DNA of 64,000 bases from NCBI RefSeq assembly GCF_003019035.1, contig NZ_CP027447.1, one strand, 5' to 3'. Of this stretch, positions 14,970 to 62,114 are shown piece after piece (position 1 is the stretch's first letter; the number at the start of each line of letters is the position of its first letter). The notes beneath the pieces are model-generated. The model was not told the DNA's origin. It did no database searches and saw nothing but the letters and a program-made list of their open reading frames with translations. The translations under genes were made by a program, and so were the position numbers. The DNA is from Escherichia coli. GTDB taxonomy: Bacteria; Pseudomonadota; Gammaproteobacteria; Enterobacterales; Enterobacteriaceae.

Positions 14970-14976
14970 CATCACA

Positions 14977-40928: not shown

Positions 40929-41214
40929 GCTGCCTCCATACTCTTAAGGTGTATTTATATTACAACTTAATTTGAAAGGGGACTATGGCTCTGAAGGAGG
41001 AGGTTTATTCAACCGACGCAATTTTGCGTACTTGCTTCATAAGCATCACGCAAAAGCTGCAAAACAGCATCTTTCCCGGAATCACCATCAAGAACTCGCC
41101 GTTCGCTTCTTCCCCTGAAATGATTAACTCCGGTATCATGTGCGCCTTATGTGATTACAACGAAAATAAAAACCATCACACCCCATTTAATATCAGGGAA
41201 CCGGACATAACCCC

Positions 41215-43776
41215 ATGAGTGCAATAGAAAATTTTGATGCCCATACGCCCATGATGCAGCAGTATCTCAAGCTGAAAGCCCAGCATCCCGAGATCCTGCT
41301 GTTCTATCGGATGGGTGACTTTTACGAACTGTTTTATGACGACGCGAAACGCGCCTCGCAGCTGCTGGATATTTCACTGACCAAACGCGGTGCTTCCGCG
41401 GGAGAGCCGATCCCGATGGCGGGGATCCCCTACCATGCGGTGGAAAACTATCTCGCCAAACTGGTGAATCAGGGCGAGTCCGTTGCCATCTGCGAACAAA
41501 TTGGCGATCCGGCGACCAGCAAAGGTCCGGTTGAGCGCAAAGTTGTGCGTATCGTTACGCCGGGCACCATCAGCGATGAAGCGCTGTTGCAGGAGCGTCA
41601 GGATAACCTGCTGGCAGCTATCTGGCAGGACAGCAAAGGGTTCGGCTACGCGACGCTGGATATCAGTTCCGGGCGTTTTCGCCTGAGCGAACCGGCTGAC
41701 CGGGAAACGATGGCGGCAGAACTGCAACGCACTAATCCGGCGGAACTGCTGTATGCAGAAGATTTTGCTGAAATGTCGTTAATTGAAGGTCGTCGCGGTC
41801 TGCGCCGTCGTCCGCTGTGGGAGTTTGAAATCGACACCGCGCGCCAGCAGTTGAATCTGCAATTTGGCACCCGCGATCTGGTCGGTTTTGGCGTCGAGAA
41901 CGCGCCGCGCGGACTTTGTGCTGCCGGTTGTCTGTTGCAGTATGCGAAAGATACCCAACGTACGACTCTGCCGCATATTCGTTCCATCACCATGGAACGT
42001 GAGCAGGACAGCATCATTATGGATGCCGCGACGCGTCGTAATCTGGAAATCACCCAGAACCTGGCGGGCGGTGCGGAAAACACGCTGGCTTCAGTGCTCG
42101 ACTGCACCGTCACGCCGATGGGCAGCCGTATGCTGAAACGCTGGCTGCATATGCCAGTGCGCGATACCCGCGTGTTGCTTGAGCGCCAGCAAACTATTGG
42201 CGCATTGCAGGATTTCACCGCCGAGCTGCAGCCGGTACTGCGTCAGGTCGGCGACCTGGAACGTATTCTGGCGCGTCTGGCTTTACGAACTGCTCGCCCA
42301 CGCGATCTGGCCCGTATGCGTCACGCTTTCCAGCAACTGCCGGAGCTGCGTGCGCTATTAGAAAATGTCGATAGCGCTCCGGTACAGGCGTTGCGTGAAA
42401 AAATGGGCGAGTTTGCCGAGCTGCGCGATCTGCTGGAGCGAGCAATCATCGACACACCGCCAGTGCTGGTACGCGACGGTGGTGTTATCGCACCGGGCTA
42501 TAACGAAGAGCTGGATGAGTGGCGCGCGCTGGCTGACGGCGCGACCGATTATCTGGAGCGTCTGGAAGTCCGCGAGCGTGAACGTACTGGCCTGGACACG
42601 CTGAAAGTCGGCTTTAACGCGGTTCATGGTTATTACATTCAGATCAGCCGTGGACAAAGCCATCTGGCACCCATCAATTACATGCGTCGCCAGACGCTGA
42701 AAAACGCCGAGCGCTACATTATTCCAGAGCTAAAAGAGTACGAAGATAAAGTTCTCACCTCAAAAGGCAAAGCACTGGCACTGGAAAAACAGCTTTATGA
42801 AGAGCTGTTCGACCTGCTGTTGCCGCATCTGGAAGCGTTGCAACAGAGCGCAAGCGCACTGGCAGAACTTGATGTGCTGGTTAACCTGGCGGAGCGGGCC
42901 TATACCCTGAACTACACCTGCCCGACCTTTATTGATAAACCGGGTATTCGCATCACCGAAGGCCGCCATCCGGTGGTTGAACAGGTACTGAACGAGCCAT
43001 TTATCGCCAACCCGCTGAACCTGTCGCCGCAGCGCCGCATGTTGATCATCACCGGTCCGAACATGGGCGGTAAAAGTACCTATATGCGCCAGACCGCGTT
43101 GATTGCGCTGATGGCCTATATCGGCAGCTACGTACCGGCGCAAAAAGTCGAGATTGGGCCGATCGACCGTATCTTCACGCGCGTAGGAGCAGCGGACGAT
43201 CTGGCATCCGGGCGTTCAACCTTTATGGTGGAAATGACCGAAACCGCCAATATTTTACATAACGCCACCGAGTACAGTCTGGTGCTGATGGATGAGATTG
43301 GGCGCGGAACCTCCACTTACGATGGTCTGTCGCTGGCGTGGGCGTGCGCGGAAAATCTGGCGAATAAGATTAAAGCGTTGACGTTGTTTGCCACCCACTA
43401 TTTCGAGCTAACCCAGTTACCGGAGAAAATGGAAGGCGTCGCCAACGTGCATCTTGATGCACTGGAGCACGGCGACACCATTGCCTTTATGCACAGCGTG
43501 CAGGATGGCGCGGCGAGCAAAAGCTACGGCCTGGCGGTTGCTGCTCTGGCGGGCGTGCCAAAAGAGGTTATTAAGCGCGCACGGCAAAAACTGCGTGAGC
43601 TGGAAAGCATTTCGCCGAACGCCGCCGCTACGCAAGTGGATGGTACGCAAATGTCTTTGCTGTCAGTGCCAGAAGAAACGTCGCCTGCGGTCGAGGCACT
43701 GGAAAACCTGGACCCGGATTCACTCACCCCGCGTCAGGCGCTGGAATGGATTTATCGCTTGAAGAGTCTGGTGTAA
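41215..43776 (+). CDS. mutS: DNA mismatch repair protein MutS
   Basis: Recognised sequence; Walker [10 protein letters not shown]. Confidence 0.95.
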
Positions 43777-43782
43777 TAACAA

Positions 43783-43815
43783 TTCCCGATAGTCTTTTGC
43801 TATCGGGAATATTAA
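43783..43815 (+). terminator. hairpin TTCCCGATAG-TCTTTTG-CTATCGGGAA after mutS
   Basis: 10-bp stem seen; weak T-tract. Confidence 0.45.
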
Positions 43816-43881
43816 CGACAACTGACGAATCAAATAAAAATACCCTGTATAATAGGAAAGCTTATTTTACAGGGTAAAACC

Positions 43882-44538
43882 ATGCCATCTACACGCTATC
43901 AAAAAATCAATGCCCATCACTATCGCCATATATGGGCCGTTGGTGATATTCATGGTGACTATCAATTATTACAATCCCGCTTACATCAACTCTCTTTTTG
44001 CCCTGAAACCGACTTACTTATTTCTGTCGGCGATAATATTGATCGTGGGCCGGAGAGTCTTAACGTACTACGCCTGTTAAACCAGCCCTGGTTTACATCG
44101 GTTAAAGGCAACCATGAAGCGATGGCGCTTGATGCATTCGAAACTGGCGATGGAAATATGTGGCTTGCCAGCGGTGGTGACTGGTTTTTCGATTTAAATG
44201 ATTCAGAGCAACAAGAGGCAATAAATCTGTTGCTGAAATTTCATCGCCTTCCACATATTATTGAAATCACTAACGACATAATAAAATATGTCATCGCACA
44301 TGCAGATTATCCGGAGAATGAATATCTCTTTGGCAAAGAAATAGCGGAGAGCGAATTACTCTGGCCTGTTGATCGTGTGCAGAAATCACTTAATAGCGAA
44401 TTACAAAAAATAAACGGTGCCGACTTCTTTATATTTGGTCATATGATGTTTGATAACACTCAGACGTTCGCTAACCAGATTTATATTGATACCGGATCGC
44501 CGAAAAGCGGGCGGCTGTCATTTTATAAAATAAAGTAG
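43882..44538 (+). CDS. pphB: serine/threonine protein phosphatase 2
   Basis: Recognised sequence (GDIHG, GNHE motifs). Confidence 0.9.
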   Translation: MPSTRYQKINAHHYRHIWAVGDIHGDYQLLQSRLHQLSFCPETDLLISVGDNIDRGPESLNVLRLLNQPWFTSVKGNHEAMALDAFETGDGNMWLASGGDWFFDLNDSEQQEAINLLLKFHRLPHIIEITNDIIKYVIAHADYPENEYLFGKEIAESELLWPVDRVQKSLNSELQKINGADFFIFGHMMFDNTQTFANQIYIDTGSPKSGRLSFYKIK

Positions 44539-44539
44539 T

Positions 44540-44566
44540 CTCATGCTTCTTCTGTGAAGCATGAGT
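44540..44566. terminator. hairpin CTCATGCTTC-TTCTGTG-GAAGCATGAG between convergent pphB and ygbI
   Basis: 10-bp stem; T-rich on the - strand side. Confidence 0.45.
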
Positions 44567-44588
44567 AACCCGGTGTTATTGCAGGCCA

Positions 44589-45356
44589 TTATTCATTTTT
44601 CGCTACCAGCAAAGAGAGATCCTGCTTCGCCAGCGCGCGACTGGCACTCTCCGGCAAACCGTCGTCTGTAATAATCTGATCAAACTCGCTTAATGGTAAC
44701 GCCAGCCATGTCGCCACCTGACCATATTTCGTCGCATCACAGACCAAAACTCGCTGGCGGCTGGCACTGGCAATCGCCCGTTTCACCGTGACTTTATCTT
44801 CCGCTGGCGTAGAAATCCCCCGCACACTCCATGACGATGCAGAAATAAAAGCCTGATCAATCATCAGGCTGCGCAGCATGGTCGCAGCGGCTTCCCCGAC
44901 ACAGGAACGGTTTTCCCGACACACTGCACCGCCAGTGTGAATAATTGTGCAATTACTGTTGTCGAGCAAGTAGTCCGCAATAACGAAATCGTTTGTGACC
45001 ACAGTCAGTGACTCCATGTGAATCAGATGCTGTGCTATCGCTAGCGTGGTCGTTCCCGCATCCAGATAGATACAACTTCCCGGCTGAACAAGACTTGCCG
45101 CCAGCTTGCCAATAGCCGCTTTTTGCGTCATTGCCAGCGCAGTTTTTACCTGATGAGAAGGTTCATGCGCCACGCGTCCCGGAGACTGGACGCCTCCGGA
45201 CACCAGCACAACGGCTCCCTGCTGCTCCAGTTTTTGTAAATCCCGACGAATGGTCATATGTGACACATTCATTCTGTCCGTTAGTTCAGCAATACTGACA
45301 ATGCCTTTTTCAGCTACCATCTCAAGGATGATTTGGCGACGCTCTACGGGTATCAA
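44589..45356 (-). CDS. ygbI: DeoR-family transcriptional regulator; TTG start with SD AAGGAG
   Basis: Recognised sequence; ORF track extends 10 codons upstream to an ATG without SD. Confidence 0.85.
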   Translation of the reverse strand: MIPVERRQIILEMVAEKGIVSIAELTDRMNVSHMTIRRDLQKLEQQGAVVLVSGGVQSPGRVAHEPSHQVKTALAMTQKAAIGKLAASLVQPGSCIYLDAGTTTLAIAQHLIHMESLTVVTNDFVIADYLLDNSNCTIIHTGGAVCRENRSCVGEAAATMLRSLMIDQAFISASSWSVRGISTPAEDKVTVKRAIASASRQRVLVCDATKYGQVATWLALPLSEFDQIITDDGLPESASRALAKQDLSLLVAKNE

Positions 45357-45551
45357 CTTTTGCTCCTTCCTTTGTCCTGCTGACATTCTACGCTATTTGC
45401 CTGCGAAACGTGCGCGGCGCAACTAACGCTTAGTTCACATAAAATAACACACAATGTTAATTTTTGTGAATCAGCTCACCATATCGTTATCTTCCAGCGC
45501 TTATATTCACAATATCAAACAAAATATCACTTAAATTAACAAGGAGAACAG

Positions 45552-46460
45552 ATGAAAACGGGATCTGAGTTTCATGTCGGTATCGTTGGCTTAGGGTCAA
45601 TGGGAATGGGAGCAGCACTGTCATGTGTCCGCGCAGGTCTTTCTACCTGGGGCGCAGACCTGAACAGCAATGCCTGCGCTACGTTGAAAGAGGCAGGTGC
45701 TTGCGGGGTTTCTGATAACGCCGCGACGTTTGCCGAAAAACTGGACGCTCTGCTGGTGCTGGTGGTCAATGCGGCCCAGGTTAAACAGGTGCTGTTTGGT
45801 GAAACAGGCGTTACACAACATCTGAAACCCGGTACGGCAGTAATGGTTTCTTCCACTATCGCTAGTGCTGATGCGCAAGAAATTGCTACCGCTCTGGCTG
45901 GATTCGATCTGGAAATGCTGGATGCGCCAGTTTCTGGTGGTGCAGTAAAAGCCGCTAACGGTGAAATGACTGTCATGGCCTCCGGTAGCGATATTGCCTT
46001 TGAACGACTGGCACCCGTGCTGGAAGCCGTTGCCGGAAAAGTTTATCGCATAGGTGCAGAACCGGGACCAGGTTCGACCGTAAAAATTATTCACCAGTTG
46101 TTAGCGGGCGTACATATTGCTGCCGGAGCCGAAGCGATGGCACTTGCAGCCCGTGCGGGGATCCCGCTGGATGTGATGTATGACGTCGTGACCAATGCCG
46201 CCGGAAATTCCTGGATGTTCGAAAACCGGATGCGTCATGTGGTGGATGGCGATTACACCCCGCATTCAGCCGTCGATATTTTTGTTAAGGATCTTGGTCT
46301 GGTTGCCGATACAGCCAAAGCCCTGCACTTCCCGCTGCCATTGGCCTCAACAGCATTGAATATGTTCACCAGCGCCAGTAACGCGGGTTACGGGAAAGAA
46401 GACGATAGCGCAGTTATCAAGATTTTCTCTGGCATCACTCTACCGGGAGCGAAATCATGA
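45552..46460 (+). CDS. ygbJ: L-threonate dehydrogenase (3-hydroxyisobutyrate dehydrogenase family)
   Basis: Recognised sequence; NAD-binding GLGSMG. Confidence 0.9.
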   Translation: MKTGSEFHVGIVGLGSMGMGAALSCVRAGLSTWGADLNSNACATLKEAGACGVSDNAATFAEKLDALLVLVVNAAQVKQVLFGETGVTQHLKPGTAVMVSSTIASADAQEIATALAGFDLEMLDAPVSGGAVKAANGEMTVMASGSDIAFERLAPVLEAVAGKVYRIGAEPGPGSTVKIIHQLLAGVHIAAGAEAMALAARAGIPLDVMYDVVTNAAGNSWMFENRMRHVVDGDYTPHSAVDIFVKDLGLVADTAKALHFPLPLASTALNMFTSASNAGYGKEDDSAVIKIFSGITLPGAKS

Positions 46461-47719
46461 TCAAGATTGGCGTTATCGCCGATGATTTTACCGGCGCGAC
46501 GGATATCGCCAGTTTTCTGGTGGAAAACGGTCTACCAACGGTACAAATTAACGGTGTTCCAACAGGTAAAATGCCGGAAGCAATCGACGCACTGGTGATC
46601 AGCCTGAAAACGCGTTCCTGTCCGGTGGTTGAAGCCACACAGCAATCGCTGGCGGCTCTGAGCTGGTTGCAACAGCAAGGTTGCAAACAGATCTATTTCA
46701 AATACTGCTCTACTTTCGACAGTACGGCGAAAGGTAATATCGGCCCGGTTACCGATGCATTAATGGATGCTCTCGACACGCCGTTTACGGTCTTCTCTCC
46801 GGCCCTGCCGGTCAACGGACGTACGGTTTATCAGGGGTATTTGTTCGTAATGAATCAACTGCTGGCCGAATCCGGGATGCGCCATCACCCGGTAAATCCC
46901 ATGACCGACAGCTATCTTCCTCGTCTGGTTGAAGCGCAATCCACAGGGCGCTGCGGCGTCGTTTCGGCACATGTTTTCGAACAAGGTGTGGATGCCGTTC
47001 GTCAAGAGCTGGCTCGCTTACAGCAAGAGGGCTACCGCTACGCGGTGCTTGATGCGCTGACCGAATACCATCTGGAAATTCAGGGAGAAGCCTTGCGCGA
47101 TGCCCCACTGGTAACGGGCGGTTCTGGTCTGGCGATTGGCCTTGCCCGGCAGTGGGCGCAAGAAAACGGTAACCAGGCTCGCAAAGCAGGGCATCCGCTC
47201 GCTGGGCGCGGCGTAGTGCTCTCCGGTTCATGCTCTCAAATGACCAACCGCCAGGTAGCACATTACCGTCAAATTGCACCAGCCCGTGAAGTTGATGTGG
47301 CACGCTGCCTCTCAATTGAAACTCTGGCCGCTTATGCACACGAACTGGCAGAGTGGGTTCTGGGCCAGGAAAGTGTACTTGCTCCACTGGTTTTTGCCAC
47401 CGCAAGCACTGACGCATTGGCAGCAATTCAACAGCAATACGGTGCACAAAAAGCCAGTCAGGCAGTAGAAACACTGTTTTCTCAACTAGCGGCGCGGTTA
47501 GCAGCGGAAGGCGTGACACGCTTTATTGTCGCAGGCGGTGAGACCTCCGGCGTAGTCACACAGAGCCTGGGAATAAAAGGGTTTCATATTGGCCCAACCA
47601 TTTCCCCTGGCGTGCCGTGGGTAAACGCACTGGATAAGCCTGTCTCACTCGCCCTTAAATCTGGCAACTTCGGTGATGAAGCCTTTTTTTCACGAGCCCA
47701 AAGAGAGTTTTTATCATGA
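46457..47719 (+). CDS. ygbK: 3-oxo-tetronate kinase
   Basis: Sequence and operon order. Confidence 0.85.
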   Translation: MIKIGVIADDFTGATDIASFLVENGLPTVQINGVPTGKMPEAIDALVISLKTRSCPVVEATQQSLAALSWLQQQGCKQIYFKYCSTFDSTAKGNIGPVTDALMDALDTPFTVFSPALPVNGRTVYQGYLFVMNQLLAESGMRHHPVNPMTDSYLPRLVEAQSTGRCGVVSAHVFEQGVDAVRQELARLQQEGYRYAVLDALTEYHLEIQGEALRDAPLVTGGSGLAIGLARQWAQENGNQARKAGHPLAGRGVVLSGSCSQMTNRQVAHYRQIAPAREVDVARCLSIETLAAYAHELAEWVLGQESVLAPLVFATASTDALAAIQQQYGAQKASQAVETLFSQLAARLAAEGVTRFIVAGGETSGVVTQSLGIKGFHIGPTISPGVPWVNALDKPVSLALKSGNFGDEAFFSRAQREFLS

Positions 47720-48354
47720 GCGATTTCGCAAAAGTAGAGCAGTCTTTGCGAGAGGAGATGACGCGGATTGCCAGTTCATTCTTTCAGCGCGGCTATGCAA
47801 CCGGTTCGGCTGGCAATCTGTCGCTGCTTTTACCTGACGGGAATTTACTGGCGACACCGACAGGTTCATGCCTGGGCAATCTCGATCCGCAGCGGCTTTC
47901 CAAAGTCGCCGCGGATGGCGAATGGTTAAGTGGTGACAAACCCTCGAAAGAGGTGCTCTTTCATCTGGCGCTGTATCGCAACAATCCGCGCTGTAAAGCG
48001 GTGGTGCATTTGCACAGCACATGGTCGACGGCGCTTTCCTGCCTGCAAGGGCTGGACAGCAGCAACGTTATTCGTCCGTTCACACCATACGTGGTGATGC
48101 GGATGGGAAATATCCCGCTGGTGCCTTATTACCGACCGGGCGATAAACGCATCGCACAGGATCTGGCGGAACTGGCAGCAGACAATCAGGCTTTTTTACT
48201 GGCAAATCATGGCCCAGTGGTTTGCGGTGAAAGCCTGCAAGAAGCCGCCAACAATATGGAAGAGCTGGAGGAAACGGCAAAGCTGATTTTTATTCTCGGT
48301 GACCGCCCGATCCGTTATCTGACCGCAGGTGAAATTGCGGAATTAAGGAGTTAA
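47716..48354 (+). CDS. ygbL: class II aldolase family 3-oxo-tetronate 4-phosphate decarboxylase
   Basis: Sequence and operon order. Confidence 0.85.
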
Positions 48355-48358
48355 TGCA

Positions 48359-49135
48359 ATGCCTCGTTTTGCAGCTAATTTATCCATGATGTTCACCGAA
48401 GTGCCTTTTATTGAACGCTTCGCCGCAGCGCGAAAAGCCGGGTTCGATGCTGTGGAATTTCTGTTTCCCTATAACTACTCCACCCTGCAAATCCAAAAGC
48501 AACTGGAGCAAAACCATCTGACACTGGCGCTGTTCAATACCGCTCCCGGAGATATTAATGCGGGGGAATGGGGATTATCCGCCCTTCCCGGACGTGAGCA
48601 CGAAGCACACGCAGACATCGACCTGGCACTGGAATATGCATTGGCGCTCAATTGTGAACAAGTCCATGTGATGGCAGGCGTCGTGCCCGCTGGCGAAGAT
48701 GCTGAACGGTACAGGGCAGTATTTATCGATAATCTCCGCTACGCTGCCGACCGCTTTGCGCCACACGGCAAGCGAATATTAGTTGAAGCACTCAGCCCCG
48801 GCGTTAAGCCTCATTATCTCTTCTCCAGCCAGTATCAGGCACTGGCTATTGTTGAAGAAGTTGCGCGAGATAACGTGTTTATTCAACTAGATACTTTTCA
48901 TGCGCAAAAAGTAGATGGCAACCTGACGCATTTAATCCGCGACTACGCCGGGAAATATGCGCACGTACAAATTGCCGGACTACCTGATCGACATGAACCG
49001 GACGATGGAGAAATCAACTATCCGTGGCTGTTCCGCCTGTTCGATGAGGTGGGATATCAGGGCTGGATCGGTTGTGAATATAAACCTCGTGGCCTCACCG
49101 AAGAAGGGCTTGGCTGGTTTGACGCCTGGCGCTAA
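48359..49135 (+). CDS. ygbM: 2-oxo-tetronate isomerase (hydroxypyruvate isomerase family)
   Basis: Sequence and operon order. Confidence 0.85.
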
Positions 49136-49223
49136 TTCGTTAAATCCCTAATTACAACGTACCCATACATCCCCCCATCTACGGATGGGGTAGGTTAACT
49201 ATAACTTTCAGACAGGGTTTCCC

Positions 49224-50588
49224 ATGTCCACAATTACATTGTTATGCATTGCGTTAACTGGCGTAATCATGCTGTTGCTGCTGGTCATCAAGGCAAAGGT
49301 ACAACCATTCGTTGCTCTGCTCCTCGTCAGCCTGTTAGTCGCACTTGCGGCGGGTATACCGGCGGGCGAAGTGGGTAAAGTGATGATCGCCGGGATGGGC
49401 GGTGTGCTTGGTTCCGTCACTATTATTATTGGTCTGGGCGCTATGCTGGGGCGTATGATCGAACACTCTGGTGGTGCAGAGTCACTGGCTAATTATTTCA
49501 GTCGCAAGTTAGGTGACAAACGAACTATCGCTGCACTGACTCTGGCAGCGTTCTTCCTCGGTATCCCCGTCTTCTTTGATGTCGGCTTTATTATTCTTGC
49601 GCCAATCATTTACGGTTTTGCCAAGGTTGCCAAAATATCGCCACTCAAATTTGGCCTGCCTGTCGCTGGGATCATGCTCACTGTTCATGTGGCGGTACCG
49701 CCGCATCCAGGCCCTGTCGCCGCAGCGGGGTTACTCCACGCAGACATCGGCTGGCTAACCATCATCGGTATTGCGATTTCTATTCCCGTAGGGATTGTTG
49801 GCTACTTTGCAGCGAAAATAATCAATAAGCGCCAATATGCAATGTCGGTGGAAGTACTGGAACAGATGCAACTGGCTCCGACCAGTGAGGAAGGCGCGAC
49901 AAAATTAAGCGATAAAATAAATCCACCGGGCGTCGCGCTGGTCACCTCGCTAATTGTTATTCCTATCGCGATTATCATGGCGGGTACGGTTTCCGCAACA
50001 CTGATGCCGCCTTCGCATCCCCTGCTTGGTACGCTACAGCTGATCGGCTCACCAATGGTAGCTCTAATGATTGCGCTGGTGCTGGCATTCTGGTTATTGG
50101 CTTTACGTCGCGGCTGGAGCTTACAACACACCAGCGACATTATGGGCTCAGCCCTTCCCACCGCGGCGGTAGTGATTTTGGTTACTGGTGCTGGAGGGGT
50201 ATTTGGCAAAGTGCTGGTGGAATCGGGCGTCGGCAAAGCCCTTGCCAACATGCTACAAATGATTGACCTGCCTCTGTTACCAGCCGCATTTATTATTTCA
50301 CTGGCGCTGCGTGCATCGCAGGGGTCAGCAACCGTAGCAATCCTGACAACCGGCGGGTTACTCTCAGAAGCGGTGATGGGATTGAATCCGATTCAGTGCG
50401 TATTGGTGACGCTGGCAGCCTGCTTTGGTGGGCTTGGCGCGTCACATATTAATGACTCAGGGTTCTGGATTGTGACCAAATATCTGGGGTTGTCGGTAGC
50501 AGACGGTCTGAAAACCTGGACAGTGTTAACGACCATTCTCGGTTTTACCGGATTCTTAATTACCTGGTGCGTATGGGCGGTAATTTGA
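49224..50588 (+). CDS. ygbN: GntP-family transporter
   Basis: Polytopic membrane protein; operon order. Confidence 0.85.
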   Translation: MSTITLLCIALTGVIMLLLLVIKAKVQPFVALLLVSLLVALAAGIPAGEVGKVMIAGMGGVLGSVTIIIGLGAMLGRMIEHSGGAESLANYFSRKLGDKRTIAALTLAAFFLGIPVFFDVGFIILAPIIYGFAKVAKISPLKFGLPVAGIMLTVHVAVPPHPGPVAAAGLLHADIGWLTIIGIAISIPVGIVGYFAAKIINKRQYAMSVEVLEQMQLAPTSEEGATKLSDKINPPGVALVTSLIVIPIAIIMAGTVSATLMPPSHPLLGTLQLIGSPMVALMIALVLAFWLLALRRGWSLQHTSDIMGSALPTAAVVILVTGAGGVFGKVLVESGVGKALANMLQMIDLPLLPAAFIISLALRASQGSATVAILTTGGLLSEAVMGLNPIQCVLVTLAACFGGLGASHINDSGFWIVTKYLGLSVADGLKTWTVLTTILGFTGFLITWCVWAVI

Positions 50589-50594
50589 CCTTAA

Positions 50595-50627
50595 TAAAAA
50601 GGTCCGATGGGCATCGGACCTTTTATT
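50595..50627. terminator. bidirectional terminator AAAAA-GGTCCGATG-GGC-CATCGGACC-TTTTATT
   Basis: A-tract, 8-9-bp stem, T-tract between convergent ygbN and ecdD-like gene. Confidence 0.7.
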
Positions 50628-50863
50628 TAGCGCTTACCTTCCGCCAGCAGCGGCGGGATGCTCGGCACCATCGGCGCGTCATCAATATCTTTCTGCGTCA
50701 TGCGGAACGCTTCGGGATAATGTTCGCGGCTGGTGCGGCGCAGCGGTTCGGTATCGCGCCAGGTATAGAGGCAATGCTGGCACTGGTAGACCGTCCAGAC
50801 ATCTTTTACCGGCGATTTCGCCATCACTTCAATCTGTTCATCAGCACAACGTGGACAAATCAT
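50627..50863 (-). CDS. small subunit of UbiD/UbiX-type aromatic acid decarboxylase (EcdD/YclD-like), 78 aa, CxxC...CxxC
   Basis: Two Cys pairs (CPRC, CQHC); position downstream of UbiD-like gene. Confidence 0.7.
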   Translation of the reverse strand: MICPRCADEQIEVMAKSPVKDVWTVYQCQHCLYTWRDTEPLRRTSREHYPEAFRMTQKDIDDAPMVPSIPPLLAEGKR

Positions 50864-50873
50864 CTTGTTCTCC

Positions 50874-52325
50874 TTATTGACGTGCGGCCAGCATAGCGGT
50901 CAGTTTTTCAGCCCAGGCTTTGGTTTCCGGTAAATCCACCACCGGCTGACTGTAGTGACCGCGGTTGTCCGGGGCGACAGGCGTGGTGGCGTCGATAATC
51001 AGCTTGTCGGTGATCCCCGCCGGGCTTGAGCCTGGGTCGAGTTCCAGCACGGACATATTCGGCAACTGCACCAAATCCCCTGCCGGGTTCACTTTCGAGG
51101 AGAGCGCCCACATCACCTGCGGCAGGTTGAACGGATCAACGTCTTCATCGACCATAATCACCATCTTCACATAGCCCAGACCGTGCGGCGTGGTCATCGC
51201 ACGGAGGCCCACCGCGCGGGCAAAGCCACCGTAGCGTTTTTTGGTGGAGATAATCGCCAGCAGGCCGTGGGTGTACATGGCGTTTACCGCCTGCACTTCC
51301 GGGAACTCGGCTTTCAGTTGCTGATACAGCGGCACGCAGGTGGCTGGCCCCATCAGGTAGTCGATTTCCGTCCACGGCATCCCGAGATAGAGCGATTCAA
51401 AAATGGGTTTGCTGCGATAAGAGACGTTATCGATGCGCACCACGGTCATGTTGCGCCCGCCGGAGTAGTGCCCGGTAAACTCACCGAACGGCCCTTCGAT
51501 TTCACGTTTACGGCTTTCGATGACACCTTCGAGGATCACTTCTGAACCCCACGGCACATCAAAACCAGTCAGCGGGGCGGTGGCGATCGGGTACGGGCTT
51601 TCACGCAGCGCGCCTGCCATTTCGTACTCGGACTGATCATATTTCAGCGGCGTGGCCCCCATCAGCGTGATGATCGGATCGTTACCGAGGGTGATCGCAA
51701 TCGGCAGATCTTCACCGCGCTCTTCCGCTTTATGCAGATGCAGGGCGATATCGTGCATCGGCACCGGTTGCAGGCCGAGCTTACGTTTGCCCTTCACTTC
51801 CATGCGGTAGATACCGACGTTCTGCTTGCCGAAGTTATCCGGATCAAGCGGATCGCGGGAAACCACGCACGCTTTGTCGAGATAGAAACCGCCATCGCCA
51901 TCGTTTAAACGAAACAGCGGCAGGATATCGAACAGGTTGATCTCGTCTCCATCGACGGTGTTCTGCGCCCAGGCTGGATTGGCTCGGCGTTCCGGGGCAA
52001 TCGGGAAGTTGTCCCAGCGGCGGATAAACTCATCGATCTGTTTTTTAACCGGGGTATTTGGCGGCAGGCCGAGGGAAATCGCGTGGTTCTGCCAGGAACC
52101 GATGGTGTTCATCGCCACGCGGGCATCGGTAAAGCCGCGAATATTATCAAACCACAGCGCTGGCGCGCCGTCGCCGATACGCCCGGTGGCGTTGGCTGCG
52201 GCTGCCAGATCCGGTTCTGCGTTCACCTCTTCGCTGATTTTCAGCAATTGCCCATGGTCGTCGAGCGCCCTACCAGGCCATCGGCGTAACCGGCACGGAT
52301 ACCGGCGAGCGTTTTCATACTGCAC
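50874..52325 (-). CDS. UbiD-family decarboxylase (EcdC/YclC-like); homology begins ~ALDDHGQ, N-terminal ~20 codons of the ORF derive from out-of-frame upstream sequence
   Basis: UbiD-like sequence through most of the ORF; N-terminus disrupted by the junction near 52270. Confidence 0.7.
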   Translation of the reverse strand: MQYENARRYPCRLRRWPGRALDDHGQLLKISEEVNAEPDLAAAANATGRIGDGAPALWFDNIRGFTDARVAMNTIGSWQNHAISLGLPPNTPVKKQIDEFIRRWDNFPIAPERRANPAWAQNTVDGDEINLFDILPLFRLNDGDGGFYLDKACVVSRDPLDPDNFGKQNVGIYRMEVKGKRKLGLQPVPMHDIALHLHKAEERGEDLPIAITLGNDPIITLMGATPLKYDQSEYEMAGALRESPYPIATAPLTGFDVPWGSEVILEGVIESRKREIEGPFGEFTGHYSGGRNMTVVRIDNVSYRSKPIFESLYLGMPWTEIDYLMGPATCVPLYQQLKAEFPEVQAVNAMYTHGLLAIISTKKRYGGFARAVGLRAMTTPHGLGYVKMVIMVDEDVDPFNLPQVMWALSSKVNPAGDLVQLPNMSVLELDPGSSPAGITDKLIIDATTPVAPDNRGHYSQPVVDLPETKAWAEKLTAMLAARQ

Positions 52326-52579
52326 GGAATAACGATCATGCCGTCGGTACGAAAGGAACCTGAGGAGATGGTCGCCGCCTGATCCGCCGAGTTATGGCTG
52401 AAGTCTGCGAGGGCAGCAACATCGCGAGCGCTGTAAGGCGTTTCCAGTTCAATGGTGGTTTTCGCCCACGTCGACATCACCAGATGAGTCTCGACATTCG
52501 GCATCTCCCGCAGCGCTTGCAGTAATGCCACACCAAGAGGCGCACCGGTAGCCCCTGTCATCCCGACGATCAGTTTCAT
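52241..52579 (-). pseudogene. truncated UbiX-like flavin prenyltransferase (EcdB/Pad1-like): 105 aa of ~190 retained, C-terminal half missing
   Basis: N-terminal UbiX homology up to GYADGLVGR then STTMGNC-stop; no UbiX C-terminal coding sequence in any frame downstream. Confidence 0.65.
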
Positions 52580-52725
52580 TGCTTACTCTCTTAATTGTTC
52601 GTATACGAACGTTATTATTAACATACTCCTTCATTTCCACAGCGGCAAGGATTGAAAAGTAACAACATCTTCTTCGTCACTGAAAAACCGCTATGATAGC
52701 GACAGAGAATTAGCCCGGAGTTTAC

Positions 52726-53133
52726 ATGGCGTTACGAAATAAAGCGTTCCATCAGTTACGACAGCTTTTTCAGCAGCATACGGCCCGCTGGCAGCACGAG
52801 TTACCTGACCTGACCAAACCACAGTACGCGGTGATGCGCGCCATTGCTGATAAGCCTGGTATCGAACAGGTGGCACTGATAGAAGCAGCAGTCAGCACCA
52901 AAGCAACGCTGGCAGAAATGTTGGCAAGAATGGAAAATCGTGGCTTAGTCAGACGTGAACATGACGCCGCTGATAAGCGGCGACGCTTTGTCTGGCTGAC
53001 TGCCGAAGGAGAAAAGGTACTTGCTGCGGCGATACCGATTGGCGACAGTGTGGATGAGGAATTTTTGGGGCGTTTGAGTGGAGAAGAGCAGGAGCTGTTT
53101 ATGCAGCTGGTGCGCAAGATGATGAGCAAATAG
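52726..53133 (+). CDS. MarR/SlyA-family transcriptional regulator, 135 aa
   Basis: MarR-like winged-helix region; divergent from the ecd-like cluster. Confidence 0.7.
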   Translation: MALRNKAFHQLRQLFQQHTARWQHELPDLTKPQYAVMRAIADKPGIEQVALIEAAVSTKATLAEMLARMENRGLVRREHDAADKRRRFVWLTAEGEKVLAAAIPIGDSVDEEFLGRLSGEEQELFMQLVRKMMSK

Positions 53134-53252
53134 GATGTTGATTGCCGGATGGGACGCTGACGTGTCTTATCCAGGCGACAAAACACACCGACTCCCAAAT
53201 AAAAGAAAAAGGCCAGCCTCGCTTGAGACTGGCCTTTCTGACAGATGCTTAC

Positions 53253-54245
53253 TTATTCGCGGAACAGCGCTTCGATATTCAGCCCCTGCGTTTGCAGGAT
53301 TTCGCGCAAACGGCGCAGGCCTTCAACCTGAATCTGGCGAACACGTTCACGGGTGAGGCCAATTTCACGACCTACATCTTCCAGTGTTGCCGCTTCGTAC
53401 CCCAGCAAACCGAATCGACGTGCCAGTACTTCACGCTGTTTGGCGTTCAGCTCGAACAGCCATTTGACGATGCTCTGCTTCATATCGTCATCTTGCGTGG
53501 TATCTTCCGGACCGTTCTCTTTTTCATCGGCCAGGATGTCCAGCAACGCTTTTTCGGAATCACCACCCAGCGGGGTGTCTACCGAGGTAATGCGCTCGTT
53601 AAGACGAAGCATACGGCTGACGTCATCAACTGGCTTATCCAGTTGCTCTGCGATCTCTTCCGCACTTGGTTCATGGTCCAGTTTATGGGACAACTCGCGT
53701 GCGGTTCGCAGGTAAACGTTCAGCTCCTTTACGATGTGAATCGGCAAACGAATAGTACGGGTTTGGTTCATAATCGCCCGTTCGATCGTCTGGCGAATCC
53801 ACCAGGTTGCGTATGTTGAGAAGCGGAAACCACGTTCCGGGTCAAACTTCTCTACCGCGCGGATCAGCCCCAGGTTGCCCTCTTCGATAAGATCCAGCAA
53901 AGCCAGACCACGATTGCCATAACGGCGGGCAATTTTTACCACCAGGCGCAAGTTACTCTCGATCATCCGGCGGCGAGAGGCAACATCTCCACGCAGTGCG
54001 CGACGCGCAAAATAAACTTCTTCTTCGGCCGTTAACAGTGGTGAATAACCAATCTCACCAAGGTAAAGCTGAGTCGCGTCCAGCACACGCTGTGTGGCTC
54101 CCTGCGATAACAGTTCCTCTTCGGCCAAATCGTTATCACTGGGTTCCTCTTCTACTAAGGCCTTTTCGTCAAAAACCTCAACTCCGTTCTCATCAAATTC
54201 CGCATCTTCATTTAAATCATGAACTTTCAGCGTATTCTGACTCAT
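53253..54245 (-). CDS. rpoS: RNA polymerase sigma factor RpoS (sigma-38), full length, Glu at codon 33
   Basis: Recognised sequence starting MSQNTLKV; ORF track extends 12 codons upstream. Confidence 0.95.
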
Positions 54246-54307
54246 AAGGTGGCTCCTACCCGTGATCCCTTGACGGAACATTCAAGCAAAAGCCTGGTTC
54301 CGCCGAT

Positions 54308-55447
54308 TTATCGCTGCGGCAAATAACGCAGCGGGTTTACGGATTTCCCCTTGTAACGAATTTCAAAATGCAAGCGTGTTGAACTGGTTCCGGTGCTACC
54401 CATGGTTGCTATTTTTTGCCCCGCCTTCACTTCTTGTTGTTCCCGGACCAGCATTGTGTCGTTATGGGCGTAGGCACTCAGGTAATCATCATTATGTTTG
54501 ATGATAATCAGATTACCGTAGCCGCGCAGCGCGTTACCGGCATAAACAACGCGGCCATCTGCAGTCGCGATAATTGCCTGTCCTTTGCTGCCTGCGATAT
54601 CAATCCCCTTGTTGCCCCCCTCAGAAGCGCCAAAGGTTTCGATCACTTTGCCCTCAGTCGGCCAGCGCCAGGTGGAGATAGGCGTACTGGTTGATGTACT
54701 GCTGACAGTCGGCTCGGTTGTGCTTGCTGTTGGTACCGTTACAGGCGCTGTGACCGTGGTCGCAGTTGGCTTGTTGTTCGGCAACATTTTGTTAGCACTC
54801 TGTTCACCCGAAGACTCAGAATACGTAATTGTCGGTTGCGACGCAACAGCAACGGTGGAATTTTGTGCAGGCTTGATCACAACTCCTTGCTCTGCTGCGT
54901 CGGCCTGGGTAATGGCATTTCCGCCAGTGATTGGCGTACCGGAAGCATTCCCCACCTGTAAGGTCTGACCGACGTTCAGCGCGTATGGTGCCTGAATATT
55001 GTTGCGCTGAGCAAGGTCACGGAAATCGTTGCCAGTAATCCAGGCGATATAGAAAAGTGTGTCGCCTTTTTTCACTGTATAGGTACTGCCGCTATAACTG
55101 CCTTTCGGAATGTTCCCATACTGACGGTTATAGACGATGCGTCCGTTTTCCATCTGTACCGGCTGCTGAGCTACTGGCTGCACCGGCTGGATTTGCGGTT
55201 GTTGAGTGGCCTGAATTTGTGGCTGCTGTACCGGCTGAATTTGCGGTTGCTGCGCTGTAGACGTCGTCCCCATTTTCGGCGGCGGCGTAATCAACATACC
55301 AGAATTGGTATTTGCAGGCGCATTGCCATTAACGGAGCTGACCGGGGCCGGTGGATTTGAAGTGTCAGAACAGCCTGCCAGCCATAGCGAAACCAGTGAC
55401 AAAGCCGCAATGCGGCGAACGGTGAATTTTGGGCTTCCCGCGCTCAT
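54308..55447 (-). CDS. nlpD: murein hydrolase activator lipoprotein NlpD (LysM + M23 domain)
   Basis: Lipobox LAGC, Gln/Pro-rich repeats, recognised sequence. Confidence 0.9.
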
Positions 55448-55586
55448 TTATCCCCCAGGAAAAATTGGTTAATAACCAGTGACATAATTACCGTGCAAGG
55501 CACCATACTGAACACTGGAAAAGATGTTCACGATACGCTGACCTGCGGCAAAATAACCAGGAAAAATCCAGGTATTTCCTCACGTT

Positions 55587-56948
<1,362 letters not shown>

Positions 56949-56968
<20 letters not shown>

Positions 56969-57998
56969 AATCACCTGTTGTGTTGATAAGTTCCCTGACA
57001 ACGCTGGTTGCAAAACTACCCGCCGGAAGCCAGAAACGGATTTCTACGGTGACGTCATCCCACCAGTTCCAGCTTAATTGTTGCGGATACAGCAGCATCG
57101 CTCTGCGCGCGGCTTCAACTTTTTCGCGCACCAGTAAGGCTTGTAATTCAGTTTCTGCGGCGACAGCTGCTTGTTCGAATGCCAGCGCTTCACGCTGAGT
57201 TCCCCATTCGCCACTGCCCGGCAATGCGGCGGTTATCATTAGCTCTTTATCGTTGACGCGACACTGTAATTCCGCCAGTTCTTCGGTGGTTGCGACAAAC
57301 CAGCTACCACGTCCGGCTAATTGTAGCGCATCGCCGTCAACAACTTGATTAACGTCTGCTTTTTTGAGGCGCTCAGCAACAATCTGATTAAACAACGCAC
57401 TGCGGGCTGCCGACAACCAAAAACTCCGTTTATTGCGATCGCGCACCGGAGTATTGGTTTGCGCCCAGCGCAGCGCGCCCTGCAAGTTGCTACCGCCAAT
57501 CCCAAAACGTTGGGCACCGAAGTAGTTCGGTACACCTTTTACGCAAATATCGATCAGACGTTGTTCAACGTCATCGCGATTGCTCACTTCGCGTAGTACC
57601 AGGGTAAAGGCGTTACCTTTCAGCGCCCCTAAACGCAGCTTGCGCTTGTGCCGCGCATACTCCAGCACCTGGCAGCCTTCCAGTTGAAAGGCGCTCAGAT
57701 CGGGCATCTCTTTGCCCGGCACGCGAGCGCATAACCACTGTTCCGTAACAGCATGTTTGTCTTTTTGCCCAGCGAAGCTGACTTCACGGGAATGAATTTT
57801 CAGGAATTTCGCCAGTGCATCCGCCACAAAACGGGTATTGCAGCCGTTTTTGAGGATTCTAACCAGAATATGCTCACCTTCACCATCAGGCTCAAAGCCC
57901 AAATCTTCCACCACCACAAAGTCTTCCGGATTGGCTTTCAGCAGCCCGGTGCCTTGCGGTTTACCGTGGAGGTAAGTGAGATTATCAAACTCAATCAT
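56949..57998 (-). CDS. truD: tRNA pseudouridine(13) synthase
   Basis: Recognised sequence and order. Confidence 0.9.
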
Positions 57999-58474
57999 TT
58001 TGTTGCCTTAATGAGTAGCGCCACCGCTTCACAGGCAATCCCTTCCCCACGTCCGGTAAATCCAAGTTTTTCCGTAGTAGTGGCTTTCACGTTAACATCA
58101 TCCATATGGCAGCCGAGATCTTCGGCAATAAACACGCGCATTTGTGGAATGTGCGGCAACATCTTCGGTGCCTGAGCGATGATAGTGACATCGACGTTGC
58201 CAAGGGTATAACCCTTCGCCTGAATACGACGCCAGGCTTCGCGTAGCAGCTCGCGGCTGTCGGCACCTTTAAATGCCGGATCGGTATCCGGGAACAGCTT
58301 GCCGATATCTCCCAGCGCCGCCGCGCCAAGCAATGCATCGGTCAACGCATGGAGCGCCACATCGCCATCAGAATGCGCCAGCAATCCTTTTTCGTAAGGA
58401 ATGCGTACGCCACCAATGATAATTGGGCCTTCACCGCCAAAGGCGTGTACGTCAAAACCGTGTCCAATTCGCAT
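57995..58474 (-). CDS. ispF: 2-C-methyl-D-erythritol 2,4-cyclodiphosphate synthase
   Basis: Recognised sequence. Confidence 0.9.
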
Positions 58475-59184
58475 TATGTATTCTCCTGATGGATGGTTCG
58501 GGTGAGGTAAAACTCGGCCAGTGCCAAATCTTCCGGGCGCGTGACTTTAATGTTATCCGCGCGGCCTTCGACCAACTGCGGATGAAATCCGCAATATTCC
58601 AGCGCCGAGGCTTCGTCGGTAATGGTAGCGCCTTCATTTAGAGCGCGCGTCAGGCAGTCATGTAACAGCTCACGAGGGAAAAATTGCGGCGTCAGCGCGT
58701 GCCATAAGCCGTTGCGATCAACGGTATGAGCAATGGCATTTTTGCCCGGTTCGGCACGTTTCATCGTATCGCGCACTGGTGCGGCGAGGATCCCCCCCGT
58801 GCGGCTGGTTTCGCTCAACGCCAACAGGCGCGCGAGGTCATCCTGATGCAGACAAGGACGAGCGGCGTCATGCACCAATACCCACTGCGCGTCGCCAGCG
58901 GCTTTCAGACCTGCCAGCACGGAATCGGCACGCTCTTCACCACCATCAACAACCGTGATTTGTGGATGATTCGCCAGAGGAAGTTGTGCAAAACGGCTAT
59001 CGCCAGGACTTATGGCAATGACGACATGTTTCACCCGGGGATGCGCCAGCAGCGCATGCACCGAGTGTTCAAGAATGGTTTGATTACCGATTGAGAGATA
59101 TTGCTTAGGACATTCCGTTTGCATTCGACGGCCAAATCCGGCCGCCGGAACCACGGCGCAAACATCCAAATGAGTGGTTGCCAT
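58474..59184 (-). CDS. ispD: 2-C-methyl-D-erythritol 4-phosphate cytidylyltransferase
   Basis: Recognised sequence. Confidence 0.9.
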
Positions 59185-59202
59185 GTTAATTCCTGGGCTG
59201 AT

Positions 59203-59514
59203 TTATCGATTGTTTTGCCCCGCAGACTGTGCGCGCTTCGACGCGTCAGGCACCAGACGATAAAAAGTTTCGCCCGGCCTGGTCATGCTGAGTTCATTAC
59301 GCGCACGCTCTTCGAGCGCCTCCTGGCCGCCATTGAGATCGTCAATTTCGGCAAAAAGTTGATCGTTTCGCGCTTTAAGTTTCGCGTTTGTAGCTTGCTG
59401 TGCCGCCACATCATCATTGACGCGGGTATAGTCATGTATACCGTTCTTACCGAACCACAGCGAATACTGTAGCCAGACCAGAATAGCCAGCAACAGCAGC
59501 GTTAGTTTACCCAT
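59203..59514 (-). CDS. ftsB: cell division protein FtsB
   Basis: Recognised sequence; TM plus coiled coil. Confidence 0.9.
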
Positions 59515-59707
59515 CCTGCCCCCTGAAAAACGGCATCATCATCCCATGCATCCGAAGACGACTCTACATCCTCTGTTGGGGATACCGCGACAACGCGGGC
59601 AAATGTACCACATTTGTCCATTGTTACGTATACCCAGGGCGTGCAGAACATAATCTCATTATTAGTTACGGTTTGAATTATGAACAGAGGAGACAAGAAA
59701 GTACAAA

Positions 59708-60031
59708 TTAGCCCAGTAGCCACATAAACAGTGCGCCAAACATAATGCCTACTGTCACCAGGGTGAAAACAATACTGTAGCGTAGCTTTCCGTCCATCAA
59801 TGAATGCAGCGCAATCCCCACCACTACCGCGACAGGCATCAGTGCCAGAAAGAAAGGCCAGGTGTAGATAAAGAAGAACAGCGTGTTAGAGCCATAAATC
59901 AACATCGGCATCGCCAGCGCAAATAACCATGAGATAAAACCGACCACGGCACCAGGCAGTGACCATGTGGTTTCTTCATCCTCAGTAAGGCTGTCGTTAT
60001 TTGTTAGTGTAATGTTATGGCTATTACGCAT
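59708..60031 (-). CDS. ygbE: inner membrane protein YgbE
   Basis: Hydrophobic small protein; position. Confidence 0.8.
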   Translation of the reverse strand: MRNSHNITLTNNDSLTEDEETTWSLPGAVVGFISWLFALAMPMLIYGSNTLFFFIYTWPFFLALMPVAVVVGIALHSLMDGKLRYSIVFTLVTVGIMFGALFMWLLG

Positions 60032-60080
60032 ATTTGATCCTGTTACTTTGACGAACCGGGCATGGAAACCCGGTGGTGTC

Positions 60081-60686
60081 TCAGGATCTGATAATATCGT
60101 TCTGTCTCAACAGATCTAATAATTGCTGTACCAAATTTGTTACTAATTGTTCACCATTGAGATGAATTTCTGCCGATTCAGGCGCTTCGTAAACGGAATC
60201 TATTCCCGTAAAGTTGCGCAGTTCACCGGCACGCGCTTTCTTATATAAGCCTTTTGGATCGCGGGCTTCGCAAATCGCCAGCGGTGTATCGACAAACACT
60301 TCGATAAAGCGCCCTTCTCCTACGCGTTCGCGAACCATCTGGCGTTCGGCGCGGTGTGGCGAGATAAATGCGGTCAGCACCACCAGTCCGGCTTCAACCA
60401 TCAAATTCGCCACTTCACCGACGCGACGGATATTTTCTTTACGATCGGCATCGCTAAAACCGAGATCGCTGCATAATCCGTGGCGAACATTGTCGCCATC
60501 CAGCAGATACGTACTGACGCCAAGTTTATGTAACGCCTCCTCCAGCGCCCCCGCGACGGTTGATTTACCGGAACCAGAGAGGCCGGTAAACCACAGCACA
60601 ACACCACGATGACCGTGGTGCTGTTCGCGTTGTTGCGGAGTTACTGGGTGGCTATGCCAGACGACGTTTTCGTCATGCAGCGCCAT
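60081..60686 (-). CDS. cysC: adenylylsulfate kinase
   Basis: Recognised sequence; Walker [10 protein letters not shown]. Confidence 0.9.
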
Positions 60687-62113: not shown

Positions 62114-62114
62114 C

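Follow-up and report, generated by a model that had tools for sequence, protein, structure and literature searches.

The arrangement of the genes between mutS and rpoS is a textbook polymorphism of Escherichia coli, and its four main states, including the one described here, were reported between 1999 and 2014. O157:H7 (pattern I) carries a 2.9-kb block in this interval, whereas K-12 (pattern II) carries a 6.1-kb block. Of 510 strains, 94 showed pattern IV of the o454–nlpD region, the type of EPEC E2348/69 (Ewers et al. 2014, PMC4209514). An earlier reference for the EPEC-type mutS–rpoS region is Herbelin et al. 2000, as cited in PMC5491219.

The closest described enzyme systems are the BCD operons, namely ecdBCD of E. 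coli (pad1/yclC/yclD), kpdBCD of Klebsiella, bsdBCD of Bacillus, and vdcBCD of Streptomyces. An intact ecdBCD operon encodes a reversible, nonoxidative decarboxylase of 4-hydroxybenzoate and other hydroxyarylic acids. EcdB, of the UbiX/Pad1 type, produces prenylated FMN (prFMN), and the UbiD-type EcdC together with the small, zinc finger-like EcdD uses it to convert the acid to phenol. HosA represses ecdBCD at a palindrome just upstream of ecdB until 4-hydroxybenzoate (4-HBA) releases it; HosA, 4-HBA, and the repression of the operon are summarized in 10.1101/2024.04.24.590444 and PMC6261655.

Layout of the mutS–rpoS interval

We analyzed a 64,000-nucleotide stretch of E. coli DNA (the window), whose source strain is probably very near SCU-301, a strain of phylogroup F and ST967. 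The gene order in the window is mutS–pphB–ygbI..ygbN–ecdD–ecdC–ecdB–hosA–rpoS–nlpD. The 6.1-kb K-12-type block occupies positions 44538 to 50619 and comprises ygbI on the minus strand, followed by ltnD/ygbJ, otnK/ygbK, otnC/ygbL, ygbM, and ygbN on the plus strand, with names taken from the SCU-301 annotation. This set of genes is an L-threonate/tetronate utilization block, which precedes the hosA–ecdBCD block. In BLAST comparisons, homology to the O157:H7 locus ended at window position 44537 and restarted at 50620, that is, 6,082 bp are missing in O157:H7. The final gene of the block, ygbN (o454; 49224–50588, plus strand), encodes a GntP-family transporter identical to WP_096986966.1 of SCU-301. 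A hairpin, GGTCCGAT-GGGC-ATCGGACC (50601–50620), separates ygbN from the convergent ecdD, and the indel boundaries of both K-12 (50627) and O157 (50620) were located at this hairpin by BLAST.

The O157/EPEC-type 2.9-kb block (50628–53206) consists of ecdD, shortened forms of ecdC and ecdB (ecdC′ and ecdB′), and hosA. The K-12 locus matched only window positions 40555 to 50627 and 53207 to 56194, so K-12 MG1655 lacks 50628 to 53206. Because of a 315-bp deletion, the block measures 2,579 bp in the window, compared with 2,894 bp when intact. Its right edge falls at the rpoS terminator hairpin (53206–53239, minus strand), with K-12 homology restarting at 53207, and beyond it lies an intact rpoS (53253–54245, minus strand) identical to WP_000081550.1 of SCU-301. 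The layout combines the 6.1-kb block of K-12 with the 2.9-kb block of O157, both present at 95 to 99% identity, whereas O157:H7 and K-12 each hold only one of them. A 481-bp segment of a TOBE-domain gene (40074–40554) is missing from both of these strains.

A prior sequence-only reading had placed EcdD-like, UbiD-like, truncated UbiX-like, and divergent MarR-type genes between ygbN and rpoS, and had called this interval classically polymorphic among E. coli lineages. All four genes are there, position for position, and the interval is the classical mutS–rpoS region. Alignment to both strain types likewise bore out the claim that the alternative blocks coexist. The coexistence had also been presented as notable, a view that did not hold, since the both-block layout is already known and named pattern IV. 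Moreover, of 5,426 complete E. coli genomes, 1,592 (29%) have a contiguous ygbN–ecdD junction, which makes the coexistence of both blocks common. The ecd cluster was found in 2,417 of these complete genomes, with at least 80% of the cluster in 2,380 of them.

The order mutS–pphB–ygbI..ygbN–kpdD/ecdD–kpdC/ecdC–kpdB/ecdB–slyA/hosA–rpoS–nlpD is common to the window and pattern IV, with o454/ygbN followed directly by kpdD–kpdC–kpdB–slyA and then rpoS. In-silico PCR with the primer pairs F5/R4 and F6/R2 of PMC4209514 gave the expected products from the window. However, the F5/R2 (o454–nlpD) amplicon was 4,231 bp, as opposed to 4,546 bp for SCU-301 and for E2348/69 as published (PMC4209514). This 315-bp difference is the deletion in ecdB/ecdC, which makes the window a pattern IV size variant. 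Occasional size variants (e.g., ECOR32 and ECOR36) are reported in PMC4209514, the 4,231-bp one not being among them.

Genes and operator of the ecd cluster

The regulatory part of the cluster is intact. Divergent from ecdB, hosA (52726–53133, plus strand) encodes a 135-residue repressor of the MarR/SlyA family (Pfam MarR) that senses 4-hydroxybenzoate, with 132 of 134 residues (98.5%) identical to PDB 8AGA, "Transcriptional regulator HosA." Its operator, the perfect 14-bp palindrome GTTCGTATACGAAC, lies at 52597 to 52610, 18 nt upstream of the ecdB start codon; hence, both a near-identical match to a characterized HosA and a palindromic operator upstream of ecdB are present. The same palindrome core is found within HosA binding-site oligonucleotides (PMC6261655, table S1). 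A scan for sigma-70 consensus promoters over window positions 50400 to 53400 gave no matches; therefore, the operon promoter was not placed by sequence, and its position relative to the HosA operator is taken from the literature (10.1101/2024.04.24.590444).

Of the three enzyme genes, ecdD/vdcD (50627–50863, minus strand) is intact. It encodes the small Cys4 subunit D of 78 residues, identical to WP_000562982.1 of SCU-301 and O157:H7, and matches NCBIfam NF041205 (VdcD) over its full length (profile positions 1–70 of 70) with 121 bits against a cutoff of 30. The remnant ecdC′ (50874–52269, minus strand) covers codon 12 through the stop of a UbiD-family, prFMN-dependent decarboxylase subunit C, scores 774 bits against NF041204 (VdcC; cutoff 650), and matches Pfam UbiD_N, UbiD, and UbiD_C. 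Its native N-terminus (MAFDDLRSFL...) is gone, along with the ATG, the Shine-Dalgarno sequence, and codons 1 to 11. In the SCU-301 reference, AGGAG stands 8 nt upstream of the ATG; the only candidate in-frame starts for ecdC′ are GTG 52325 and TTG 52247, and a Shine-Dalgarno sequence was found at neither. PGAP and the gene callers start ecdC at TTG 52247, giving 457 residues against 475 in the reference C subunit. All intact EcdC orthologues compared from Salmonella, E. albertii, and Vibrio keep MAFDDLRSFL. Residues 3 to 20 of intact EcdC, which is nearest to 7AE4, a phenolic acid decarboxylase, align with the conserved segment DLRxFLxxLxxxGQL. An AlphaFold2 model of intact EcdC, built on a shallow alignment of 7 sequences, had a mean pLDDT of 28.7, too low to be of use. 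The loss of the ecdC start, Shine-Dalgarno sequence, and first 11 codons had gone unmentioned in the sequence-only reading.

The third gene, ecdB′ (52241–52579, minus strand), encodes a truncated UbiX-type flavin prenyltransferase (Pad1) of 112 residues, of which 104 are native and 8 are out of frame before a TGA; residues 105 to 197 of EcdB are missing. It reaches only 161 bits on NF041206 (VdcB), below the equivalog cutoff of 290, and covers just profile positions 1 to 106 of 184 and positions 1 to 89 of 162 of Pfam Flavoprotein. Intact SCU-301 EcdB scores 311 bits on NF041206 and is 97% identical to O157:H7 Pad1 (PDB 1SBZ). The SCU-301 cluster is intact throughout, with D, C, B, and MarR genes of 237, 1,428, 594, and 408 nt. 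Like the described BCD operons, the cluster in the window has the B–C–D order, matches to the VdcB, VdcC, and VdcD equivalog models, and the divergent HosA with its 14-bp operator, while the overlap of B stop and C start is present in the intact relative SCU-301. Unlike in those operons, its B subunit is cut to the N-terminal 104 residues and its C subunit lacks a start.

A 315-bp deletion across ecdB and ecdC

When we compared window positions 37500 to 64000 (∼26.5 kb) with SCU-301, the only differences were one SNP (ltnD A88T) and a 315-bp gap. The gap falls at the 5-bp microhomology GCGCC (52265–52269) and corresponds to positions 14771 to 15085 of the SCU-301 locus L001, with GGTCGTCGAGCGCC/CTACCAGG as the sequence across the junction. 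The flanks of the deletion form a 5-bp perfect direct repeat, extending to 9 of 11 positions when imperfect matches are allowed, and the chance of microhomology of at least 5 bp is ∼0.005. No insertion sequence or other mobile element was found at the junction, which is clean. The deletion probably arose by slippage or illegitimate recombination.

Since ecdB and ecdC are read in different frames (TAATG overlap), the EcdB frame ends 8 codons after the junction. An in-frame EcdB–EcdC fusion, which a length divisible by 3 might suggest, was rejected as the two frames differ. The deletion also takes the ecdC ribosome-binding site and is the single lesion in the ecd cluster, which is otherwise identical to that of SCU-301. 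Thus, the cluster is damaged as the sequence-only reading had claimed, the truncation being real, but not decayed, as one deletion accounts for it and the rest is intact. That reading would have been refuted by an intact cluster on re-sequencing; the damage stands, with the same junction in many independent assemblies. In a look-up of the exact protein, which detects only the allelic background of the window, the 112-residue EcdB′ was encoded on 99 contigs of up to 5.17 Mb in 102 index blocks of NCBI and Logan data. Two cluster mates of the truncated EcdB′ were dropped as assembly or clustering noise, one an unrelated protein (P0002) and the other, from a 1-kb ENA contig, a fusion of an EcdB N-terminus with an unrelated membrane protein (P0003).

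Readings of the deletion allele

The deletion is real and clonally inherited. That it might instead be an assembly or sequencing artefact, with the real cluster of this genome intact, could be argued from its absence in all 5,426 RefSeq complete E. coli genomes, where all of the best matches are split into two alignment segments across 506 bp, from the intact cluster of the nearest complete genome, SCU-301, and from a deletion length that is a multiple of 3 with a short GC-rich repeat on its flanks. This explanation is effectively refuted. The exact product, including its out-of-frame tail, recurs on the 99 contigs, the identical junction is present in loci from four separate SRA runs (SRR27538830, SRR28454960, SRR23081266, and SRR27538930), NCBI nr holds at least 4 independent accessions of the 457-residue EcdC′ (e.g., EOA2780230.1), and assemblies do not reproducibly collapse by 315 bp at a 5-bp repeat. 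It is also very improbable that the site is a recurrent hotspot with independent origins in several strains. Although the flanking repeat could favor repeated slippage, all four of the SRA loci are 99.99 to 100% identical to the window over 7 to 20 kb including the junction, and no complete genome of another lineage carries the deletion despite the 2,417 that hold the cluster, with the caveat that the look-up covers one allelic background.

We favor, with a probability of roughly 0.85, a clonal microhomology deletion in a SCU-301-like strain with a full pattern IV region, yielding a recent, sequence-predicted loss-of-function allele of ecdBC. One deletion between the two GCGCC copies, reaching across the overlap of the ecdB stop with the ecdC start, removed the C-terminal 47% of EcdB, shifted what is left of the EcdB frame so that it stops after 8 foreign codons, and deprived EcdC of its ATG, its Shine-Dalgarno sequence, and 11 conserved N-terminal residues. 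HosA, its operator, ecdD, ygbN, and rpoS are untouched, and the allele, inherited clonally, is present in ∼100 public assemblies. Since B is shortened and C is start-less, the enzyme part is most likely a pseudogene pair accompanied by an intact D subunit and regulator. Most likely, this lineage alone has recently lost 4-hydroxybenzoate decarboxylase, with HosA and operator intact. The deletion has very probably disabled the phenolic acid decarboxylase operon, which would be gene loss of an ordinary kind.

Some observations speak against full inactivation. The truncated EcdC′ reading frame keeps its 774 bits on the VdcC model, and PGAP labels the TTG-start protein a normal "subunit C" (EOA2780230.1 and others). 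Some translation by termination–reinitiation is conceivable because the frame opening at TTG 52247–52245 overlaps the EcdB′ stop TGA at 52243–52241. Furthermore, the housekeeping UbiX of E. coli can supply prFMN to UbiD-type enzymes, including heterologous decarboxylases (PMC5779730); therefore, the loss of EcdB alone need not abolish activity. On this basis the operon could be remodeled and alive, with a shortened EcdC′ coupled to the EcdB′ stop, prFMN from UbiX, EcdD, and activity under HosA control. The intact promoter, operator, ecdB ribosome-binding site, and ecdD would fit such an operon, as would a Pantoea stewartii orthologue likewise annotated at 457 residues and the ∼100 assemblies that carry the allele. 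We consider it unlikely, as TTG starts poorly when no Shine-Dalgarno sequence precedes it and the 18 missing residues include both the first Pfam UbiD_N positions and the N-terminal stretch whose conservation extends from the E. coli protein to the solved homologue 7AE4. More broadly, it is doubtful that the allele is non-neutral, whether through this remodeling or through adaptive loss, in which dietary or paraben-derived 4-hydroxybenzoate would no longer be turned into toxic phenol and HosA would still sense 4-HBA on behalf of its other targets, for example motility. If true, either could help explain the ∼100 sequenced isolates of this phylogroup F sublineage with the allele. Because the lineage and SCU-301 differ by one SNP, persistence of the allele is uninformative on selection.

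Under the favored loss-of-function reading, the locus has little significance beyond bookkeeping. The deletion provides a usable lineage marker through the shortened o454–nlpD amplicon, and the strain would constitute a natural, near-isogenic knockout relative to SCU-301 (∼1 SNP per 26 kb), usable for testing the role of ecdBCD in the gut. Because PGAP names the start-less, truncated EcdC an ordinary subunit C, gene-presence surveys would score the operon as two-thirds intact.

Gene content and nearest relative of the region

Listing the ORFs and comparing the sequence with complete E. coli genomes in RefSeq placed the interval in the mutS-rpoS region, with E. coli SCU-301 (NZ_CP051751.1) as the top match to the window. 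The annotated order in SCU-301 is hypE, fhlA, a TOBE-domain gene, ygbA, mutS, pphB, ygbI, ltnD, otnK, otnC, ygbM and ygbN, then opposite-strand subunits D, C and B of a non-oxidative hydroxyarylic acid decarboxylase (ecdD, ecdC and ecdB, also named vdc or kpd), a divergent MarR regulator, rpoS and nlpD. By direct BLAST, window 37500-52269 and 52259-64000 form two collinear blocks that differ from SCU-301 over 26.5 kb by one true SNP and one 315-bp gap. The lone SNP, G to A at window 45813, produces A88T in ltnD (ygbJ, L-threonate dehydrogenase). Since SCU-301 is phylogroup F, ST967 (PMC11251922), the window strain almost certainly belongs to the same lineage or to a very close neighbour of it.

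A sequence-only reading had placed an EcdD-like subunit, a UbiD-like decarboxylase, a truncated UbiX-like gene and a divergent MarR-type regulator between ygbN and rpoS, and profile, structure-homologue and palindrome identities confirmed this. EcdD/VdcD (50627-50863, minus strand) matched NCBIfam NF041205 at 121 bits (cutoff 30). The UbiD-type ORF matched VdcC (NF041204) at 774 bits (cutoff 650) together with all three Pfam UbiD domains, and the nearest protein to EcdC in similarity is the phenolic acid decarboxylase 7AE4. The UbiX-type ORF (52241-52579, minus strand) reached only 161 bits against VdcB (NF041206, cutoff 290), over profile positions 1-106 of 184; intact SCU-301 EcdB scored 311 bits over positions 1-184 and is 97% identical to O157:H7 Pad1 (solved structure 1SBZ). 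The MarR protein is identical at 132 of 134 residues to PDB 8AGA, "Transcriptional regulator HosA", and 18 nt before the ecdB ATG lies a perfect palindrome, GTTCGTATACGAAC (52597-52610), that agrees with the core of HosA binding-site oligonucleotides (PMC6261655).

The 315-bp deletion and its predicted effect

The stretch missing from the window corresponds to 14771-15085 of the SCU-301 locus. Its ends have GCGCC in common, inside an imperfect 9/11 repeat (CGTCGAGCGCC / CGCCGCGCGCC), and by chance about 0.5% of random junctions would show at least 5 bases of microhomology. Such ends would fit an origin by replication slippage or by microhomology-mediated illegitimate recombination. In SCU-301, ecdB ends and ecdC begins in a shared TAATG, with AGGAG 8 nt upstream of the ATG, and this overlap falls within the deletion. 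The truncated EcdB (EcdB') keeps residues 1-104, followed by 8 out-of-frame codons and a TGA stop at 52243-52241, and EcdC is left without its Shine-Dalgarno sequence, ATG and residues 1-11. In losing its C-terminal half, EcdB presumably also lost the conserved PAFY region, which contributes to the dimethylallyl-phosphate/FMN site of UbiX enzymes. Intact orthologues from Salmonella, E. albertii and Vibrio conserve the lost EcdC N-terminus (MAFDDLRSFLQ...), which also aligns with the matching segment of 7AE4.

When intact, the system would be a 4-hydroxybenzoate-inducible, HosA-repressed BCD decarboxylase. Binding of 4-HBA releases HosA from its palindromic site (PMC6261655), and HosA represses both itself and the decarboxylase operon, according to the summary of Roy and Ranjan 2016 in 10.1101/2024.04.24.590444. 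The prenylated FMN used by the C decarboxylase is made by B-type proteins, a role that E. coli UbiX can also fill (PMC5779730). Because EcdB is half-length and EcdC lacks a proper translation start and a conserved N-terminal segment, the enzyme part is most probably dead in the window, where HosA, its operator and EcdD are retained. The only remaining in-frame EcdC starts are GTG 52325, inside ecdB sequence, and TTG 52247, and no Shine-Dalgarno sequence was found at either. Residual function through TTG 52247, which overlaps the EcdB' stop, with UbiX supplying prFMN, seems improbable.

Distribution of the deletion allele

The junction was found in none of the 5,426 complete RefSeq E. coli genomes; each of the five records tied at 100% identity gives a split alignment, two pieces over a 506-bp span. 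An exact-sequence look-up of the 112-aa EcdB', frameshifted tail included, nevertheless returned 99 contigs in 102 index blocks across NCBI and Logan assemblies, the longest a 5.17-Mb chromosome. Over 7-20 kb that include the junction, loci from four SRA runs match the window at 99.99-100% identity. The 457-aa EcdC' (TTG start) is represented by four or more NCBI protein accessions, called simply "subunit C". Taken together, these matches indicate that the deletion is genuine and clonally inherited. An assembly artefact is effectively excluded by the 99 contigs and the shared SRA junction, and the same evidence counts against the proviso that re-sequencing might show an intact cluster. Recurrent deletion at a hotspot is unlikely given that all loci examined are clonally identical, in a look-up by exact protein that could see only this allelic background. 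With a single SNP in 26.5 kb against SCU-301, the deletion appears very recent, and sequence decay therefore gives no inference on selection. It is apparently a lineage-restricted loss of function, the only specific feature of this region and already in public data; we found no discussion of it in the literature.

PGAP labels the start-less EcdC (50877-52247, minus strand, 457 aa, TTG) as an ordinary "non-oxidative hydroxyarylic acid decarboxylases subunit C", so the lesion would escape presence/absence surveys; the accessions are EOA2780230.1, EOC6810148.1, EOP0639983.1 and EOP0890222.1. The Pantoea stewartii VdcC orthologue (WP_164483170.1) is also 457 aa, with a divergent N-terminus, MMPVKEKMTVDKDI..., replacing the conserved MAFDDLRSFL; this may reflect a lesion of independent origin, a wrongly called start or a form that is naturally short. 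A 1,092-bp ENA contig (P0003), probably a chimeric metagenome contig, encodes a 247-aa product joining EcdB residues 1-101 to unrelated membrane-protein sequence.

Coexistence of the two blocks and flanking features

The K-12 MG1655 alignment covers window 40555-50627 and 53207-56194; what is missing is 50628-53206, the classical "2.9-kb" segment (2,579 bp here, 2,894 bp intact). For O157:H7 the alignment covers 40555-44537 and then resumes at 50620, lacking 44538-50619, the classical "6.1-kb" segment of 6,082 bp. The interpretation in the sequence-only reading is partly supported: both blocks coexist and the cluster is damaged, but coexistence itself is not unusual, and the arrangement and system were already known. 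Ewers et al. 2014 (PMC4209514) described four states: pattern I (O157:H7/EHEC 1, o454/ygbN absent), II (K-12, rpoS directly beside o454), III (B2/CFT073, c3302-c3304) and IV (EPEC E2348/69, o454 and rpoS flanking kpdD-kpdC-kpdB-slyA), the last in 94 of 510 strains. In silico, the SCU-301 product of their F5/R2 primers has exactly the published length, 4,546 bp; the window product is 4,231 bp. EPEC is also credited with a 2.9-kb hosA-pad1-yclC segment in PMC5491219, which cites Herbelin et al. 2000. A contiguous ygbN-ecdD junction occurs in 1,592 of the 5,426 complete genomes. Of these genomes, 2,417 carry the ecd-hosA cluster, and 2,380 of the carriers have 80% or more of it; carriers nearly always have the whole cluster, and large lesions of this kind are uncommon.

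Each end of the 2.9-kb block abuts a hairpin, one between convergent ygbN and ecdD (50601-50627) and the other the rpoS terminator (53206-53239). The K-12 (50627) and O157 (50620) breakpoints lie at most 8 bp apart at the ygbN-ecdD hairpin.

Window 1-25694 is a Mu-like prophage (DUF935 portal-type protein, tape measure, tail sheath, late control D) whose closest E. coli matches are only 97-98% identical; bases 1-259 had no match in the ten best hits, all of which start at base 260. Compared with SCU-301, the prophage splits the hypothetical gene HHJ43_RS05785, located between hycI and ascB, and SCU-301 homology begins inside that gene at window 25695 (position 12035 of SCU-301 locus L006). The TOBE-domain gene (molybdenum-pterin-binding-like, c3292-type; 40074-40554, ORF 40078-40545, plus strand), between fhlA and ygbA, is shared with SCU-301 and absent from K-12 MG1655 and O157:H7; its segment adds a third small indel to the region, on its fhlA-mutS side. 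In the window (46457-47719) and SCU-301, otnK is 1,263 nt and overlaps otnC, whereas K-12 MG1655 ygbK (6336-7502 of locus L008) is annotated at 1,167 nt with a 91-nt gap before ygbL, so K-12 ygbK may have its own 3' lesion.
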